Positions 347-59,525 of a DNA stretch of 64,000 nt are shown here, piece by piece. The position numbers and the translations under genes are program-made. The stretch covers positions 1,123 through 65,122 of the forward strand of contig JAAOZP010000019.1 of assembly GCA_011605725.1 (NCBI GenBank). The letters run 5' to 3'. The DNA is from Nitrososphaerota archaeon (lineage in GTDB: Archaea; Thermoproteota; EX4484-205; JAAOZP01). Within the stretch, counting starts at the first letter, position 1; each line of letters begins with the position of its first letter. The notes below the pieces were generated by a model, which saw nothing but the letters and a program-made list of their open reading frames with translations, ran no database searches and was not told where the DNA came from.

Positions 347-416
347 GCGCGCGCGCGAGGGGGCGCCGGCGAGGAACTTAGAGGTTCGAGTCGCGCCGGC
401 TAGCGCCTTCCTCACC

Positions 417-2276
417 GTGCTGGGAGGCTCCCTCAGCAGGGAGGGGCTCGTGGGAGTGGGCGAACGGCTCGCCCTCCCGCTCAGCGTGATCGTCGACAGC
501 GCCGCTGGGGACAGCGTCGCGCTAACAGTCACCATCTCCTACGGGGATTTCGCCAGGAACCCCAGCACGCAGACCGAAACCGTCGGGTTCCAGACGGTTA
601 GAGCGAAAGGTCTCCCCTTCTTCGCCTGCAGCCTCTCGCCCAGTAGGGTTGTCTCGGGCCAGCGGTATCAGATGTACCTCTACCTCACTAACACGGGTCC
701 CAGCACAGCCAAGGACGTTAAAGTCTCCGTGGCGAGCCTTTCACCGGGTGTCGCGGTTCTTTCTGGCTCCTCCGCCTCCTTGGGCGATTTCGCTCCCGGC
801 GAGACTAAAGCTATGCCGCTGCTGGTTAGGGCTGACCGCACAGCCGTTGGGGTGGCACAGCTCCAGCTGACACTAACCTACTACGACGAGTACGGTGATA
901 CGAGAACGAGCTCCTTGAGCACCGGTTTTGAGGTGGCGAGGTCCCCATCACCCCTACTCTCGGTGCAGCTGCTCAACGGGACTCTGCCCTACGGCCTGAA
1001 CACCAGACTTGTAGTATCAATCGTGAATCTCGGCGACGCGGCAGCTGTAGATGTGTCGGTAGACGCGGCATCGGGAGCTGGAGTCTACGTGCTGGAGGCT
1101 ACGAGGGCTAGGGTTAGGCGCGTGGAGGCCGGTCGCAGCGTCGAGCTCCCCTTCACGGTAAGGGTTGTGCCGACCGAAAGCTCGGCTACGATCACCTTCA
1201 GGCTCGAGTACTACGACGAGCCCGGCGAGAGGTACGCCGACGCGCTCCAGGTTTCCTTCAACGTGACACGAGGCGACCCCAGCGTCACGCTGACCCCGCT
1301 CAACAGGACCCTTTACCCTAACCGTGTCAACCACGTCGTAGTCCTAATCCGCAATACAGGATCCGCAGAGGCTCGCAACGTCACAGTCGCGTTGACCTCG
1401 CAGAGCCCCGAGATCGGCGCAGTTGTCGGTCCCTCCACGGTCAACGTGGGCAGCTTAGCTGCTGGCGCCTCGGCAGAAGTCGTGTTTGACGTGTTCGTCC
1501 AACCGAAGGTTTATGGGGCTCTGCAGCTCGTCGCCGCCGCCTCCTACAACGCGATCGACGGGCGCGCGTTTAGGGACCTCTACGCGCTCGGTTTCGAGGT
1601 GCACGGTGACTGGGAGCTGAGTGTCGCCTCCGTCGTCGCCGTGCCTCCGGTCGTGTTCCCCGGCGACAAGCTGGTGAGGCTCGCGGTCACGCTCGTGAAC
1701 TCCGGCGACTATATGGCGAGGAACGTGGAGGCGAGATTCCTCGGCGGCGAGTGGGTGAAGCCCAGCATTGCCAGCGGGGCTGAAACATTCATCCCCTACC
1801 TGCCCGTCGGGCGCGCGCGCTTCAGTGTGCGCAACGTGACGAGCCTCGAGGTGGAGAGAGGTGGAAGGGGGTACAAGCTGGTGTATGAGATCGAGAACAC
1901 CTCGAATTCCACCGCCGAGGACGTGCGCGTTGAGGTTTTTTCGCCTTTCGTGACGGGGACTACGAGCGTTTACCTGGGCACACTCACCTCGCGCGAACGC
2001 AAGCCGGTGACTTTCGAAGTGAGCATCGATCAATCCGCACCTCTCGGCGAGTTGCCCATCGACATAAGAGTAAGCTGGACGCAGGAAAGCAGGAGCTTAA
2101 GCCAGTACATTAGAGGCTCGCTGCACGTGAAGGAGCCTCGAGGAGTCAGCTCCCTGACCGTCGCGATTGCACTCGCAGCCGCCGCTGCCGTGCTCGCGTA
2201 CTACAAGAGGGGCAGCCTCAAGAAGCTCGCCACCCGTTTGCGCGGAAGCGGGAAGAACGCTTCCTTCCGCGAGTAG
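417..2276 (+). CDS. COG1361-type S-layer/Ig-like repeat protein with C-terminal TM anchor (5'-truncated, probably internally chimeric at ~1811)
   Basis: Repeated LTNTGxxxAxDV / IxNxGxAxA Ig-like units, a C-terminal hydrophobic helix and a basic tail. The segment is high-GC. Confidence 0.7.
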   Translation: MLGGSLSREGLVGVGERLALPLSVIVDSAAGDSVALTVTISYGDFARNPSTQTETVGFQTVRAKGLPFFACSLSPSRVVSGQRYQMYLYLTNTGPSTAKDVKVSVASLSPGVAVLSGSSASLGDFAPGETKAMPLLVRADRTAVGVAQLQLTLTYYDEYGDTRTSSLSTGFEVARSPSPLLSVQLLNGTLPYGLNTRLVVSIVNLGDAAAVDVSVDAASGAGVYVLEATRARVRRVEAGRSVELPFTVRVVPTESSATITFRLEYYDEPGERYADALQVSFNVTRGDPSVTLTPLNRTLYPNRVNHVVVLIRNTGSAEARNVTVALTSQSPEIGAVVGPSTVNVGSLAAGASAEVVFDVFVQPKVYGALQLVAAASYNAIDGRAFRDLYALGFEVHGDWELSVASVVAVPPVVFPGDKLVRLAVTLVNSGDYMARNVEARFLGGEWVKPSIASGAETFIPYLPVGRARFSVRNVTSLEVERGGRGYKLVYEIENTSNSTAEDVRVEVFSPFVTGTTSVYLGTLTSRERKPVTFEVSIDQSAPLGELPIDIRVSWTQESRSLSQYIRGSLHVKEPRGVSSLTVAIALAAAAAVLAYYKRGSLKKLATRLRGSGKNASFRE

Positions 2277-2338
2277 GGCCTTGCTCGGTCCGTGCGTGCA
2301 GCTAAAACGATAAAAAGCGCAGGTGGCTCGCGCACATC

Positions 2339-2899
2339 GTGAGTTTCAAGCTGCACTTGGGCCGTTCGCTCTACCTGATCGTGCTGGGCCCAGCGGGTAG
2401 CGGGAAGACCACGCTGACGGCGGCTTTCGGCAGCTGGCTCTCCGAGGTCCAAGAAGCGCGGGTGGCGTACGTGAACTTGGACCCGGGTGCCGACTACCTG
2501 CCGTACAAGCCTGACGTTGACGCAAGAGATTACGTAACTGTCGAAGCGCTCATGAGGGAGAAAGGGTTGGGCCCGAACGGCGCGCTCGTGGAGAGCATGC
2601 AGGCGCTGTGCGAGAGGGAGACCGAGATCCTCGAAAAAGTCTCGCGCTTGGAAGCCGATATCGTTCTCGTGGACACACCAGGCCAGATGGAGCTCTTCCT
2701 CTTCCACGACGTTGGGCCGGCGTTCTCGCGTGAGCTAGCGAAGCGGGGCGCCACGGTGGCTCTCGTACTCTTCGACTCTGGCCTGGCGAAGAGCCCGTCG
2801 CACTTCGCAACCCTCAGGCTTATATCTCTTGTAGTGCAGTTGAGGCTGGATGTACCGACAGTTGCTGCCCTAAACAAGGGCGATAGCGCGCGACCTTGA
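2339..2899 (+). pseudogene. GPN-loop GTPase, C-terminally truncated at a junction
   Basis: GPAGSGKT, VNLDPG, GLGPNGA, DTPGQME and LNKxD motifs. Ends at TAGCGCGCG (2884-2892). Confidence 0.85.
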
Positions 2900-3582
2900 A
2901 GGCGAGCAGGGGTCATCGCGGAGCTCGCGGCGAAGCTTGTCGAGCTGATGAACCTACAGCGTAGCGGCTAGAATCCCCCTCATCTCAGCAAAGGAGCGCT
3001 GGGGCTTAGCGCGCGCGGCTAACCTAAACTGTTCAGTTGCTAGAAGGTAGGCTTTTCGCCCTCCGGAGATATTCGTCTAAGATCGCGTCGTCAACTTCAT
3101 CTCTTCTCATGATTAAGGGCCTCTTCTGAAAAACATTGTTTTCCAACGGAAATATTTAAGCTTACTTAATTTCAGTAGCATTCATGACCAAAAGGTTAAC
3201 CTTCTCTCTATGCAAGTCTCCAACCTCTTTCCTAATTAAATACCTTCCCTAGAAATCGTAATCAGTCAAGACCATGAAAGGCAGATCAGAATTCTTTCTA
3301 AACTTCCTATAAGGGCTATAAATCCTTTCAAATCCATTAATCGCTGGCTTAACAATGCCGATGACAATCTCTCATATAGCTTTGTTCTTCTCCTTATCTC
3401 CGTTTAAGACTCTGCAAGAGGATTTTCGAAATTCCTATATTGACATGGATAAAAGTTGCAGATTGAAGAAAAGGTTATTCAGGGTTCTTCAAAATAAACA
3501 TTTTCCCTGAACAGTACATACTAGAAAAGCTTAAAAACCCTAGGTTGCAGAAGATTACAGCAGTTAATCGAGGAATCCCTGG

Positions 3583-3622
3583 GGGATCACCTGGGGAAGC
3601 AGAGGCCCTAGAGGGTGATCCC
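3583..3622 (+). promoter_or_regulatory. Bulge-helix-bulge RNA element in the rtcB 5' leader (predicted 15-nt intron 3598-3612) sequestering the SD
   Basis: GGGATCACC-TGGG-GAA-GC-AGAG-GC-CCTA-GAG-GGTGATCCC: 9-bp outer helix, 4-bp central helix and two 3-nt bulges. ATG at 3628. Confidence 0.8.
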
Positions 3623-3627
3623 GAGAA

Positions 3628-6576
3628 ATGAGCTACAAGTTTGAAAAGGTTTCGGATGTAGAGTACCATGTAGACGTGGGCGCTAAGAAGGGGATGAGAG
3701 TACCGTTAAGAATCTTCGCTGATGAAACGTTGTTGCAGAAGATGACGCAGGATAAAACGATTGAGCAGGGATTAAACGTTGCAACGCTTCCAGGAATATA
3801 TAAATATTCAATTATTCTACCGGATGGCCACGAAGGCTATGGCTTTCCCATCGGGGGCGTAGGTGCTTTCGACGTTAAGGAGGGTGTTGTTTCACCCGGA
3901 GGCGTTGGCTACGATATCAACTGCCTATCCGGGGACAGCTTGATTCTGCATGAACATGGTTACAGACTTCCCATCAAAGAGTTCTTAAACAGTTGGAATC
4001 GTGAACGGGTTACATGCGTTAGCCCTGAGAGGGGCGCTAGGCCCACTGAGGTTATACGTTTTATCAGGATTCGCCCTAACTGCAGAGTTTTCAGGGTTGA
4101 AACAAGCTCAGGCATGAAGATAATAGCTACAGAGGACCATCCTTTTCTCACACGTAGGGGGATGGTGCCGTTGAGAGAGGTAGGCTACGAGGACGTCGCC
4201 GTCTACCCGTTCGAAGGAGTACCGTATGAAAATCCTGAGCCCATAACTATAGTGACGGAGGATGATTTAAAGCGTCTTAAGGTTCCCGGCCGGAAAGACC
4301 TGTTGATCTCTGAACTCAAAAGAAGAGGGCTTCTCCCATTGAAGAGTAATAACAGTAAGTTTCCATATCTTCTTAAGCTAATGGGTTTCATACTTGGTGA
4401 CGGGACGCTCCTGTACACCGAAAAGAGCCACGCAGCCTGGTTCTTCGCGAGGGTTGAAGACTTGCAGGAGATAAGGGACGATATTTTACGCTTAGGTTTT
4501 AGGCCTTCTAAAATCTATTCAAGAGCTAGGAGACGCAGGATTAAAACTAAATACAGCGAGTATGGCTTTACAATGCTTGAGCACAGCATTAAGGTTTGTT
4601 CTAGGAGCTTTATCTCGCTTATGGCTGCGATGGGTGTCCCTCTGGGAAACAAGGCTTCGCAAAACTATACGTTGCCTAAATGGTTGTTCAGGCTTCCCCT
4701 TTGGCAGAAGAGACTTTTCCTTGCCGCGTTCTTCGGAGCTGAGCTTTCCAAGCCGAAAACGGTAACAGGGCATCCCTTTAATTTCTATATGCCTGTCTTG
4801 AGCCAGAATAAGAAGAAGGGCTATGAGGAGGCTGGTGTAAAGTTTCTTAGGCAAATCGCCTTGCTCCTAGGAGAGTTCGGCATTAAAGTTAAGAAAATAA
4901 CTATGGAGCCTGAAGCGGTTGTGGGGAAAGGAAATGTTCCTTCCACTAGGCTCCGCCTCATACTATCTGGTTCCCCAGAGAATTTGACTAAACTGTGGAG
5001 CACGGTGGGGTTTGAATATAACAGGGAGAAGAAGCATCTCGCAAATGTTGCTGCTCACTACTTGAAGCTGAAGACACGCGTAGTAAAAACTAGAAAGAAG
5101 GTGGAGCTCGTAGCTCTCGCTATGAGGAACAAAGGCCTGTCAAATACAACGATATATGAAAGTCTGGAATCTGAATACGTAAATCGAAGGTTTATTGAAA
5201 GGTCTCTGTACGGGGAGAGGAAGAGTCTTCCAAGAGTACCGTTAAGCTTTCTGCCATTCGAGGATTTTCTAGGGTCAGCGACGGAGGGTCTTGGTAAAAC
5301 AGGTACTGTTTGGGATAGGGTTGTGAAAAAGGAGGAAATACTGTTCAACGAGGAGGTTTATGATTTTACTGTTAAAGACGATGTTCATAATTTCATAGCC
5401 AATGGCTTCGTGGTTTCAAACTGCGGCGTGCGCCTTCTCTTGACGAATCTTAATGTGGGGGATGTTAAGCCTGTTTTGAGGGATCTGCTCGACGAGATTT
5501 TCCGGAACGTTCCCTCCGGCTTAGGCTCTGAAGGGAAGCTTAGGATGAGCTTCGACGAGCTGGATAATGCTGTTAGGGAGGGTGTTGGCTGGGCTGTTAA
5601 GCGGGGATATGGATGGAAAGAGGATGCTGAGTTCATTGAGGAGAATGGTTGTCTTCAGGGTGCTGACCCGAGTAAGGTCAGTGTTACCGCTAAGAGGCGT
5701 GGCTTGCCGCAGCTCGGCAGCCTTGGAAGCGGAAACCATTTCCTTGAAATTGATTTCGTGGAGAGGATTTTGAATAAAGAGGTTGCTGAAGGGTTTGGAA
5801 TCGAAAGGGTTGGGCAGATCGTGGTACTTATTCATACGGGGAGCCGTGGATACGGGCATCAGATTTGCAGCGATTATCTTAAAACCATGGAGGCAGCCAG
5901 CAGGAAGTATAACATTTGGCTGCCGGATAGAGAGCTTGCAGCCGTGCCTGTTGAAAGCCAGGAGGCAAAGGATTACTTTGCTGCAATGGCCTGTGCAGTC
6001 AACTATGCTTTCTTAAACAGGCAGGTTATTACTCACTGGGTTAGGGAGAGCTTCACGAAGGTTTTGAAAAAAGACGCTTCAGAACTTGGCTTGAATGTTC
6101 TCTACGATGTTGCGCATAACATTGCTAAGATTGAGGATCACAGGGTTAACGGGGAGAAGAAGAGGGTTGTTGTCCATAGAAAAGGCGCTACCAGGTCGTT
6201 CCCGCCGGGGAGCAATCATATTCCACAAAAATACAGGCAGTATGGTCAACCGGTTCTAATACCTGGTTCAATGGGATCGGCAAGCTGGGTTCTGGTTGGA
6301 ACCGAGACTGCGATGGAGGCGAGCTTCGGCTCAACCGCGCACGGCGCTGGAAGAATGCTGAGCAGGCATGAGGCGATGCGGAGGTTTACGAGTAGACAGA
6401 TCAGAGGAATGCTTGAGGAGAGAGGTGTCTACCTTAGGGTTGCGGATATGAACCTGGTTGCTGAGGAGGCGCCTGGAGCCTACAAGGATCCCGACCAGGT
6501 GGTTGAAGTGACCCATAGGGCTGGGATTTCGCTTAAGGTTGCTAGGCTAGTGCCTCTTGGCGTGGTTAAAGGATAG
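3628..6576 (+). CDS. rtcB: RNA-splicing ligase RtcB containing an intein
   Basis: PDGHEGYGFPIGGV, GGVGYDIN/CGVR, GSLGSGNHF, HTGSRG, HRKGAT, HGAGR and EEAPGAYKD motifs. Confidence 0.97.
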   Translation: MSYKFEKVSDVEYHVDVGAKKGMRVPLRIFADETLLQKMTQDKTIEQGLNVATLPGIYKYSIILPDGHEGYGFPIGGVGAFDVKEGVVSPGGVGYDINCLSGDSLILHEHGYRLPIKEFLNSWNRERVTCVSPERGARPTEVIRFIRIRPNCRVFRVETSSGMKIIATEDHPFLTRRGMVPLREVGYEDVAVYPFEGVPYENPEPITIVTEDDLKRLKVPGRKDLLISELKRRGLLPLKSNNSKFPYLLKLMGFILGDGTLLYTEKSHAAWFFARVEDLQEIRDDILRLGFRPSKIYSRARRRRIKTKYSEYGFTMLEHSIKVCSRSFISLMAAMGVPLGNKASQNYTLPKWLFRLPLWQKRLFLAAFFGAELSKPKTVTGHPFNFYMPVLSQNKKKGYEEAGVKFLRQIALLLGEFGIKVKKITMEPEAVVGKGNVPSTRLRLILSGSPENLTKLWSTVGFEYNREKKHLANVAAHYLKLKTRVVKTRKKVELVALAMRNKGLSNTTIYESLESEYVNRRFIERSLYGERKSLPRVPLSFLPFEDFLGSATEGLGKTGTVWDRVVKKEEILFNEEVYDFTVKDDVHNFIANGFVVSNCGVRLLLTNLNVGDVKPVLRDLLDEIFRNVPSGLGSEGKLRMSFDELDNAVREGVGWAVKRGYGWKEDAEFIEENGCLQGADPSKVSVTAKRRGLPQLGSLGSGNHFLEIDFVERILNKEVAEGFGIERVGQIVVLIHTGSRGYGHQICSDYLKTMEAASRKYNIWLPDRELAAVPVESQEAKDYFAAMACAVNYAFLNRQVITHWVRESFTKVLKKDASELGLNVLYDVAHNIAKIEDHRVNGEKKRVVVHRKGATRSFPPGSNHIPQKYRQYGQPVLIPGSMGSASWVLVGTETAMEASFGSTAHGAGRMLSRHEAMRRFTSRQIRGMLEERGVYLRVADMNLVAEEAPGAYKDPDQVVEVTHRAGISLKVARLVPLGVVKG
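3922..5421 (+). mobile_element. Intein (500 aa) with LAGLIDADG homing endonuclease in RtcB
   Basis: Starts CLSGDS; block B ATEDHPF; LMGFILGDG and FLAAFFGAE; ends VYDFTV...HNFIANGFVVSN followed by +1 Cys. Confidence 0.95.
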
Positions 6577-21037: not shown

Positions 21038-21129
21038 TGGACCGGGTGGGACTCGAACCCACGACCCCCCGCACTTTGGCCTTTTTTCGGGGTCGCCAAG
21101 CGGGTATTCTACCACTGAACTACCGGCCC
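21038..21129 (-). tRNA. tRNA-Ala(GGC) with a 20-nt canonical 37/38 intron (21074-21093)
   Basis: GGGCCGG/CCGGTCC acceptor stem with G3:U70, TTCGAGT T-loop, BHB TTGG-CGA...CCAA-AGT. Confidence 0.95.
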
Positions 21130-26940: not shown

Positions 26941-27282
26941 CCGGCCTAACAGTTCTACATGTTTTTAGACGCATGTCCTCAGCCGATCTAGCAACCATGC
27001 TTGCCGCGGCCTCGTGTAGGTGATGCTTAAAAAGTTTCTCTGGAACAGGAGTCTATTTATTACGGATTCTGATTAATGCTTTAAACGCTGAAGACTGGCA
27101 CATGTTTAAACCAGTGAAGCAATCATCCTTCCAAGCGGCGCTCAGCCCCTTCTTCTCGTGTTGAATTCTCCAAACCTGGTTAAAAGGCAGTGAGCAGGTT
27201 GACTGAATCCCTTCGCAACCCGTAGAGAAAGGTTAATAAAGCCTCTTGCGAAAAGGCTTCGCCAGCCGCCCGTGGGGACGGC

Positions 27283-27336
27283 TAGGAGATGGAGCTCTCC
27301 TCCAACCGCCTTTAAACGAGGCTGATAGCTCCTACC
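27283..27336 (+). promoter_or_regulatory. Fluoride riboswitch (crcB motif)
   Basis: TAGGAGATGGAGCTCTCC...AACCGCC...GGCTGATAGCTCCTAC matches the GGNGATGG..P1..AAC..GCTGAT..CCTAC consensus, with GGAGCT/AGCTCC pseudoknot pairing. Confidence 0.88.
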
Positions 27337-27345
27337 CTGTAACGT

Positions 27346-32207: not shown

Positions 32208-32296
32208 GCGGCGTTCGTCTAGTCTGGCCAGGACATCAGCCTGCCATCGACATCGGCGGACCGCTGGTAACCCGGGTTCAAATCCCGGACGCCGCA
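32208..32296 (+). tRNA. tRNA-Gly(GCC) with a 15-nt canonical 37/38 intron (32247-32261)
   Basis: GCGGCGT/ACGCCGC acceptor stem, TTCAAAT T-loop, BHB CTGC-CAT...GCGG-ACC. Confidence 0.95.
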
Positions 32297-59435: not shown

Positions 59436-59525
59436 GCCCTAGTAGCTCAGTGGTTAGAGCGCCTCCTTGGTAATGTGGAAGAACGCCGATGGAGGAGGCC
59501 GTGGGTTCAAATCCCACCTAGGGCT
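59436..59525 (+). tRNA. tRNA-Thr(GGT) with a 17-nt intron (38/39 at 59474-59490, or 37/38)
   Basis: GCCCTAG/CTAGGGC acceptor stem, CCTCC/GGAGG anticodon stem, TTCAAAT T-loop. Confidence 0.93.

Follow-up and report, generated by a model that had tools for sequence, protein, structure and literature searches.

The gene for the tRNA ligase RtcB in a Nitrososphaerota archaeon (NCBI GenBank assembly GCA_011605725.1) is preceded by a conserved RNA hairpin, in which a motif of the splicing-endonuclease (EndA) type coincides with the ribosome-binding site of the gene. The element lies in a stretch of 64,000 nucleotides (nt), hereafter the window (contig JAAOZP010000019.1, positions 1,123 to 65,122; G000:C9:1123-65122), and we compared it with the regions upstream of rtcB in related genomes. 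All 16 rtcB loci of the genus, 15 from genomes and one from a metagenome (L065), carry the motif, which is therefore genuine, as a preliminary description of this DNA had held. We propose that the rtcB leader has two states, such that cutting by EndA would free the ribosome site and resealing by RtcB would hide it again. We put the probability of this reading at roughly 0.45.

The hairpin upstream of rtcB

RNAfold predicted one dominant hairpin, designated P2, upstream of the rtcB ATG. Reading the window sequence, we found the arms of the inverted repeat (GGGATCACC at 3583-3591 and GGTGATCCC at 3614-3622) and the inner features (TGGG at 3592-95 facing CCTA at 3607-10, GAA at 3596-98, GAG at 3611-13, and GC/GC enclosing AGAG) where the preliminary description had placed them. 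That description had interpreted them as a strict bulge-helix-bulge (BHB) with a 9-bp outer stem, a TGGG/CCTA helix, two 3-nt bulges, a 2-bp inner helix and a 15-nt intron at 3598-3612. This register is possible in the window, as is another one base off, which is favored by RNAfold and, on the 15 genus sequences, by RNAalifold. The former could be formed at only two of the 16 genus loci (L001 and L006); L003 fits it without the inner helix, and a C-A mismatch disrupts it in most of the remaining genus genomes. The shifted register holds at 16/16 loci, with an outer helix of at least 10 bp (10–11 bp), a central helix of exactly 4 bp, a bulge of exactly 3 nt and predicted introns of 13–18 nt; in the window, the intron becomes 3599-3611, 13 nt. 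The inner helix in this register comprises 0 bp at five loci, 1 bp at eight and 2 bp at three, so that a strict BHB with an inner helix of at least 2 bp is found at 3/16 loci in the conserved register and at 2/16 in the earlier one. Because the shifted register holds throughout while the inner helix measures only 0–2 bp, the conserved object is a bulge-helix-loop (BHL; hBH plus loop), that is, a relaxed BHB with its 3' site in the bulge and its 5' site in the loop. At every genus locus, 4 bp separate the predicted cut sites, one of which is in the loop, and the flanking outer helix of 10–11 bp is paired in 100% of cells, as expected of an EndA substrate. The 5' cut was placed two nucleotides past the central helix, a rule for which this genome's cbf5 intron, described below, served as the calibrator.

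The first 105 residues of RtcB, used as a query, matched in 35 of 41 related genomes. The hairpin was present at 15/15 genus rtcB loci from genomes, ending 5–6 nt upstream of the ATG, and also at L065 (91% identity), the only one of the 80 metagenome rtcB loci kept that carries it. A covariance model built from the 15 genus sequences and run on the 26 genomes of the class gave one strong match per genome (E ≤1.5e-16) in 15 of them, all in the genus and each abutting rtcB. Matches elsewhere in the class genomes were no better than E 0.005; we rejected these weak matches (E 0.005 to 0.7) as paralogues, as they lie inside coding regions or before no open reading frame (ORF). Two genus genomes without the element (70% and 82% complete) are also without an rtcB match. 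Among 15 more distant rtcB loci, an analogous hairpin was found only at L016, from another family of the same order (67–68% protein identity), and most of the others look leaderless or short-leadered. The L016 leader had no match in the other two genomes of its genus (88% and 85% complete). Likewise, a geometric scan of 110 rtcB upstream regions gave GC-rich instances only at the 16 genus loci.

The preliminary description had pointed to conservation and covariation as a check; conservation was found at 16/16 genus loci with an analogue at L016, and no pair within the genus changed on both sides. All 210 pair cells of the 15 genus sequences are paired, and five pairs vary, each changed on one side only and always via a G-U wobble. 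Since such changes preserve pairing in the plus-strand RNA alone, a DNA palindrome or an antisense RNA is disfavored. Length changes are confined to the top loop (9–14 nt), the loop of a competing hairpin (P1, described below) and, once, the spacer before the ATG (L012); they never affect the bulge or the 4-bp helix. L016 keeps P1, P2, a 3-nt AGA bulge and the sequestration of the Shine-Dalgarno (SD) sequence.

The 16S rRNA of the same genome ends with GGGATCACCTCCT, and the 5' strand of the P2 stem is identical to the first 10 letters of this tail. The opposite strand contains a perfect contiguous 9-nt match to the tail, ending 5 nt upstream of the rtcB ATG. Matches of at least 6 nt precede 134 of 1600 long ORFs, from which we conclude that the organism uses SD sequences; rtcB alone among the 1600 is preceded by this 9-mer, whose match is displaced inward along the 16S tail. 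Given that the 5' strand copies the 16S tail and the 3' strand is complementary to it, the outer helix of P2 is a duplex of the SD with an anti-SD mimic, predicted to hide the ribosome-binding site. At L016, one stem pair is G-C instead of A-U, which weakens pairing with its own, unchanged 16S tail. With this change the hairpin stays intact but pairing with the ribosome acquires a mismatch, so the hairpin itself appears to be under selection.

The 5' part of the leader can form the second hairpin, P1, with which neither the outer nor the central helix of P2 can coexist. Here the invariant UCCCUGGG pairs with CC(C/U)GGGGA, which comprises the top of the outer helix and the GGGG of the central helix; CCCTGGG is invariant across the genus loci, and the P1 loop absorbs length changes. 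When the 5' part ending in GGGGAA was folded alone, P1 formed at 16/16 loci, with energies of −11.0 to −18.2 kcal/mol at 37 °C. The L016 equivalent has 8 bp, a 5-nt loop and an energy of −12.0 kcal/mol, and two of its pairs differ from those of the genus in both bases (C-G to G-C, and G-C to A-U); this covariation rests on a single outgroup aligned by hand, and the MAFFT alignment with L016, in which that locus was misaligned, was left out of the pair counts. All 16 loci and L016 can accordingly adopt a mutually exclusive structure in which the SD would be free, as expected of a switch. As long as the RNA is uncut, P1 alone is at a disadvantage of 8 to 19 kcal/mol relative to the full fold.

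An A/T box with a purine-rich upstream flank, homologous to the promoter-like element of the window (Table 1), occurs 98–114 nt before the ATG at 16/16 loci, and the stretch between this box and the hairpin is variable in both sequence and length. These features predict a leader of about 65–85 nt that contains both P1 and P2.

We also compared the element with known RNA families. No Rfam 15 family reached its gathering score here, and region 3480-3680 gave only chance-level microRNA and long non-coding RNA matches (E 0.33 to 8.3). A K-turn consists of a 3-nt bulge followed by tandem sheared G-A pairs on the bulged strand; inspection of the rtcB leader showed GGG after the bulge and no GA on the facing strand, and a K-turn or L7Ae-binding leader was rejected accordingly. 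No similar hairpin was found upstream of the endA alpha gene, the endA beta-like gene, archease or cbf5 of the same genome.

Table 1. Positions of the rtcB leader elements in the window (genus ranges refer to the 16 loci)
Feature	Position	Strand	Description
BRE (B recognition element)/TATA-like promoter element GAAAAGC TTAAAAA	3524..3537	+	predicts a start near 3560 and a leader of ~68 nt with the whole element
Alternative 5' hairpin P1	3576..3597	+	3576-3583 (UCCCUGGG) with 3590-3597 (CCUGGGGA), loop 3584-3589
P2 outer helix	3583-3592 with 3613-3622	+	10 bp, U-G at top; RNAfold and RNAalifold
P2 outer helix, 5' strand	3583..3592	+	10-nt copy of the 16S rRNA 3' tail (anti-SD mimic)
Central helix H, 5' strand GGGG	3593..3596	+	pairs with CCCT; common to P1 and P2; invariant at 16/16 loci
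Loop	3597..3605	+	9 nt; genus 9–14 nt; first bases conserved, A then A/G; predicted 5' cut after 3598
Predicted mini-intron, conserved register	3599..3611	+	13 nt; length and layout as in the cbf5 intron G000:C19:62122-62134
Central helix H, 3' strand CCCT	3606..3609	+	CCTC at L012, all four pairs kept
3-nt bulge	3610..3612	+	AGA; AAA, AGA or ATA in the genus; 3 nt at 16/16 genus loci and L016; predicted 3' cut after 3611
Extended SD	3610..3622	+	12 of 13 positions (counted by eye) can pair with the 16S tail; 3613-3622 is the outer-helix 3' strand
rtcB	3628..6576	+	982 amino acids (aa); Pfam RtcB E 6.7e-166, Intein_splicing E 2.4e-17

The RtcB of the window contains an intein at residues 106-598 (window 3943-5421); judged from open-frame lengths (975–985 aa versus 485–506 aa), 4 of 15 genus rtcB loci have one. 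Upstream of rtcB, region 401-3000 of the window has a G+C content of 60–64%, compared with ~46% for the genome. This block ends in an ORF for a GPN-loop GTPase (2339-2899), which stops at profile position 168 of 240, and an AT-rich gap of ~700 nt with no ORF over 51 aa lies between this ORF and rtcB. Foreign DNA, a broken gene or a join made in assembly might each account for the block. Elsewhere in the window, at 27276-27341 (+), lies a fluoride riboswitch (crcB motif; 52.6 bits, E 1e-11).

The splicing endonuclease and the cbf5 mini-intron

Two genes of the endonuclease family PF01974 are present in the genome. The product of one (187 aa) is closest to crenarchaeal catalytic subunits and that of the other (200 aa) is a diverged paralogue, and the best solved relatives are chains of the two-subunit type. 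The alpha subunit aligns without gaps through the Crenarchaea-specific loop to chain 3p1z_B, which we take to be the Aeropyrum pernix enzyme, with K42 and K44 placed at K44 and R46 of the chain. The numbering agrees with that of PMC3241643. In A. pernix, the loop lysine is needed for cutting the loop side of BHL mini-helices, and the enzyme accepts BHL and hBH mini-helices as substrates even without a tRNA body (PMC3241643, PMC5829648). The genome is thereby predicted to encode a two-subunit EndA of broad specificity that would be able to cut relaxed motifs. The second endonuclease-family gene overlaps the gene for histidyl-tRNA synthetase (Pfam tRNA-synt_His, E 1.1e-56) by 4 nt (G000:C12:30846-32752; locus L146 1207-3113), an arrangement that recalls the endA-trpS1 operon of Haloferax (PMC7714728).

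The tRNA introns of this genome indicate what the enzyme has to handle. Those of tRNA-Gly (15 nt) and tRNA-Ala (20 nt) each have a 2-bp inner helix and are of the same format as the leader motif, as had been pointed out beforehand, and the mRNA intron of cbf5 is 13 nt long. The inner helix is 1 bp in the introns of tRNA-Glu and tRNA-Ser and 0 bp in that of tRNA-Thr; since these helices measure only 0–1 bp, cognate tRNAs would also need the cutting of relaxed motifs. Among the 17 introns called genome-wide by ARAGORN, 5 fit a strict 4-bp BHB search and 12 misfit near the boundaries set by ARAGORN. Within the window, tRNA genes with introns occur at 21038-21129 (−), 32208-32296 (+) and 59436-59525 (+), and their ARAGORN names differ by intron mode (Val/Ala/Thr versus Ala-GGC/Gly-GCC/Thr-GGT).

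We scanned the whole genome for the geometry of the leader, requiring an outer helix of at least 8 bp, and the rtcB leader ranked first by energy (−21.6 kcal/mol). The fifth-ranked match (−19.8 kcal/mol; G000:C19:62107-62144, outside the window) lies in cbf5. It consists of a 9-bp outer helix, a CCCU/GGGG central helix, a 9-nt loop and an AGA bulge. When the same cut rule is applied, 13 nt (C19:62122-62134) drop out, a DKCLD exon becomes joined to a TruB_N/TruB_C_2/PUA exon and GHAGTLDPGVSGVLPV is restored; trial removals of 11 or 15 nt fail to join the frames. Since the two frames join only on removal of exactly 13 nt, the coding sequence implies that an mRNA mini-helix isosteric to the rtcB leader has to be cut and resealed in this cell. 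Only the cbf5 match truly joins two frames among the top 120 of the scan. A match on contig C17 was a false positive as an mRNA intron, the unspliced frame reading through normal flavoprotein-like sequence.

The survey of cbf5 (loci L154-L183) showed the intron at 16/16 genus loci (13 nt), at 7/7 other loci of the class (13–16 nt) and at 4/7 loci of other classes of the phylum (11–21 nt), the remaining three of which look intronless. Its boundary falls in the codon of the catalytic Asp, as does that of the published intron (PMC2738675). At 13 nt, the genus intron is shorter than the 16–44 bp range quoted in that paper, and the intron extends to lineages beyond those credited there. Gene callers would report cbf5 as truncated or frameshifted, and introns of 11–21 nt in this gene would be missed across the phylum.

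Two further hairpins of the scan are recorded here. The second-ranked one (−21.0 kcal/mol; G000:C11:121981-122017 (+), L152) is in a radical SAM/HMPTM-like gene, and the same cut rule would give an in-frame 12-nt piece. The third (G000:C6:37275-37337 (+), L184) begins with CCCTGGG about 25 nt after a BRE/TATA-like box and looks like the start of a non-coding RNA, with no Rfam match at E up to 0.01.

A proposed two-state leader and its alternatives

On these observations we base the following model, for which we infer that the whole leader is transcribed, cut and ligated and that translation responds. The stable state would be P2, a 14-bp hairpin whose lower 10 bp would lock the SD against the copy of the 16S tail and whose top would serve as an EndA-type BHL. 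EndA would cut after the second loop nucleotide (3598) and after the second bulge nucleotide (3611). The excised piece of 13–18 nt would carry one strand of the 4-bp helix (CCCU) and leave GGGG free, which would let the 5' fragment refold into P1. P1 would nucleate, invade the remaining 10-bp duplex from both ends and strip off the anti-SD strand, and the 3' fragment, starting at the SD, would become translatable. If RtcB sealed the ends first, the product would be a 10-bp stem with a 7-nt GGGGAAA loop, in which the ribosome site would be hidden and the RNA would no longer be cuttable. More EndA activity would then raise the output of RtcB and more ligase activity would lower it, with EndA acting by feed-forward and RtcB by feedback. 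The cost of separating the cut halves fits this scheme in part: the energy holding them together minus that of P1 ranged from −6.4 to −14.3 kcal/mol, corresponding to dissociation constants (Kd) of 3e-5 to 8e-11 M at 37 °C and weaker binding at 60 °C, and most cut leaders are predicted to fall apart at single-molecule concentrations.

The full form of this model is a homeostat in which EndA cleavage and P1 release would switch RtcB on, RtcB ligation would switch it off for good, and the leader would gauge the balance of endonuclease and ligase; we hold it tentatively, with the odds somewhat against it. Several results weigh against cleavage-dependent control. With regard to structure, the predicted 5' cut site falls in the loop, with an inner helix of 0–2 bp among the 16 loci, and a BHL is cleaved more slowly than a BHB in vitro (PMC3241643). 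The central helix of L016 has 3 pairs and a G-A mismatch. As for energetics, the cut halves are predicted to stay together at 3/16 loci (Kd ~1e-10 M), and the spliced leader stays folded (−19.9 to −29.2 kcal/mol), so that activation would have to rely on the unligated intermediate, which is unusual. Two-sided pair changes within the genus number 0/14, a count for which the shuffle control (500/500) is uninformative. The element is limited to one genus and one further locus, and 93 other rtcB upstream regions have nothing comparable. The window sequence has a fold z-score of −1.54, 16 of 200 shuffles folding equally well in RNAfold, and the genome scan gave 1456 matches compared with 1241–1338 in shuffled genomes. 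The energy rank of the leader was rejected as a statistic, two shuffled genomes having reached −21.7 and −19.6 kcal/mol. Within a single genome, the motif is thus not beyond chance, and its significance derives from cross-genome comparison. Concerning the transcript, a second TATA-like box (TTTTAAGG) lies ~62 nt before the ATG at 7/16 loci, so that a start inside the hairpin is possible, and the only RNA run found, a metatranscriptome, contained 0.04 of the words and yielded a single 182-nt contig at 4075-4256, outside the leader.

The same leader could act as a two-state switch that sequesters the SD and is untouched by EndA: nascent P1 would open the site briefly and P2 would close it, or temperature or a protein would shift the balance. 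Such a switch is simpler, needing no unobserved cleavage, and it accommodates the identity and sequestration of the SD as well as the conservation of the mutually exclusive P1 and P2. A G+C content of 62.1% in the 16S rRNA, set against 46.4% genome-wide, points to a thermophile, and hairpin stability would then depend on temperature. However, a 3-nt bulge and a 4-bp helix that remain constant while both loops vary are left unexplained, as are a geometry equal to that of the cbf5 intron and the fact that the gene is rtcB; in addition, the full fold outweighs P1 by 8 to 19 kcal/mol at equilibrium, so that P1 could have a role only through kinetics. We regard this switch as somewhat unlikely; on its terms, the bulge and the 4-bp helix would do no more than adjust stability. 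Constitutive cutting and resealing, by contrast, shares the evidence of cleavage competence with the model of EndA-dependent control. In this case the leader would hold a neutral or selfish mini-intron like that of cbf5, and the hairpin would dampen rtcB translation without feedback. The spliced leader does keep the SD paired, and the published cbf5 intron has no proven function in the available text of PMC7714728 and PMC2738675. Nevertheless, P1 is conserved and the predicted 3' cut coincides exactly with the beginning of the SD, both of which give an impression of design. A location in front of the ligase gene would have to be accidental, with odds of roughly 1 in 2000 genes, and the piece has been lost at 0/16 loci. 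We consider such a mini-intron rather improbable.

Still further down the scale, and in our view very improbable, is that the conserved feature does not act as RNA of the sense transcript at all. The arms do form an inverted repeat of 9–10 bp that a DNA-binding regulator could recognize, and an upstream ORF of 28 codons in the window (3545-3631, +) passes across the hairpin and terminates in an ATGA shared with the rtcB start, as a leader peptide might. However, all five variable pairs are G-U wobbles, which break both the DNA symmetry and the minus-strand pairing, and conservation rules out a chance palindrome. The leader peptide was rejected: the frame is open with a start codon at only 4/16 loci, and the loop lengths differ by non-multiples of 3.

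Known systems and significance

The pre-mRNA intron of crenarchaeal cbf5 was reportedly described by Watanabe in 2002. EndA cuts a relaxed BHB/BHL in this pre-mRNA, which has a very short intron (Yokobori 2009, PMC2738675). Like the rtcB element, the cbf5 intron is a relaxed BHB/BHL in a non-tRNA context with a heterotetrameric EndA, a variable interior and a conserved exon-pairing part. The geometry of the intron in the same genome is identical to that of the rtcB element (4-bp helix, 9-nt loop, AGA bulge, 13 nt). In contrast, the cbf5 intron is inside the coding sequence and its removal restores the frame, whereas the rtcB element is in the leader and changes no codon; furthermore, the rtcB element is part of an SD-sequestering stem and has a competing hairpin. 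The preliminary description had named cbf5 as the precedent for a BHB in mRNA, and the cbf5 intron does occur in this genome, but a precedent in a 5' untranslated region (UTR) exists too. HVO_1309 of Haloferax volcanii has a 46-nt BHB intron in a 192-nt 5' UTR, supported by circular RNA sequencing and in vitro cleavage, and its expression fell on EndA depletion (PMC7714728). It resembles the proposed rtcB case in being an EndA substrate in an mRNA leader, the rtcB side being predicted from sequence. It differs in that the host is a euryarchaeon with another type of EndA, and the available text of PMC7714728 reports no link to a ribosome-binding site or to a gene for a splicing enzyme. In the literature examined, cbf5 and HVO_1309 were the only described mRNA targets of EndA.

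The BHL and hBH mini-helices cut by A. pernix EndA share with the rtcB leader an outer helix, a 3-nt bulge at the 3' site, a 4-bp helix and a 5' site in the loop (PMC3241643, PMC5829648), and the A. pernix enzyme and the alpha subunit of this genome both carry the Crenarchaea-specific loop lysine. The mini-helices are derived from pre-tRNA and were cut in vitro, whereas the rtcB element belongs to an mRNA and is seen so far as a sequence.

In eukaryotes, translation of the HAC1/XBP1 mRNA is controlled by Ire1 cleavage at stem-loops and resealing by a tRNA ligase, which is RtcB in animals. The likeness, cleavage by a protein-only endonuclease followed by tRNA-ligase resealing, is an analogy only (see also PMC6456296, PMC8899846). 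HAC1/XBP1 differs in nuclease and signal, its intron is in the coding region, and the ligase is not known to regulate its own mRNA. Leaders that mimic a substrate or hide the SD set the level of the enzyme itself in E. coli rnc and thrS and in RNA thermometers, and SD-sequestering leaders are common in bacteria. These systems differ from the proposed one in being bacterial and in acting through binding or degradative cleavage, not by cutting and resealing. To our knowledge, few cis-regulatory RNAs are known in archaea.

The preliminary description had taken a BHB in the rtcB leader to be new, and we likewise found no BHB or BHL motif in an rtcB leader described in the literature searched. EndA substrates in mRNA and SD-sequestering leaders are already known; their fusion with a release hairpin before rtcB is what we did not find described there.

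The element is about 50 nt long and experimentally tractable, the cbf5 mini-intron in the same cell offers a built-in positive control, and the model predicts a role for each conserved piece, namely the bulge, the 4-bp helix, P1 and the SD. If confirmed, it would mean that the cut-and-ligate machinery of tRNA splicing also switches translation on and off, with the ligase reading out its own activity from the mRNA that encodes it. The homeostat, if true, would bring the logic of HAC1/XBP1 to a prokaryote and be the first example in archaea of translation controlled through protein-only mRNA splicing.

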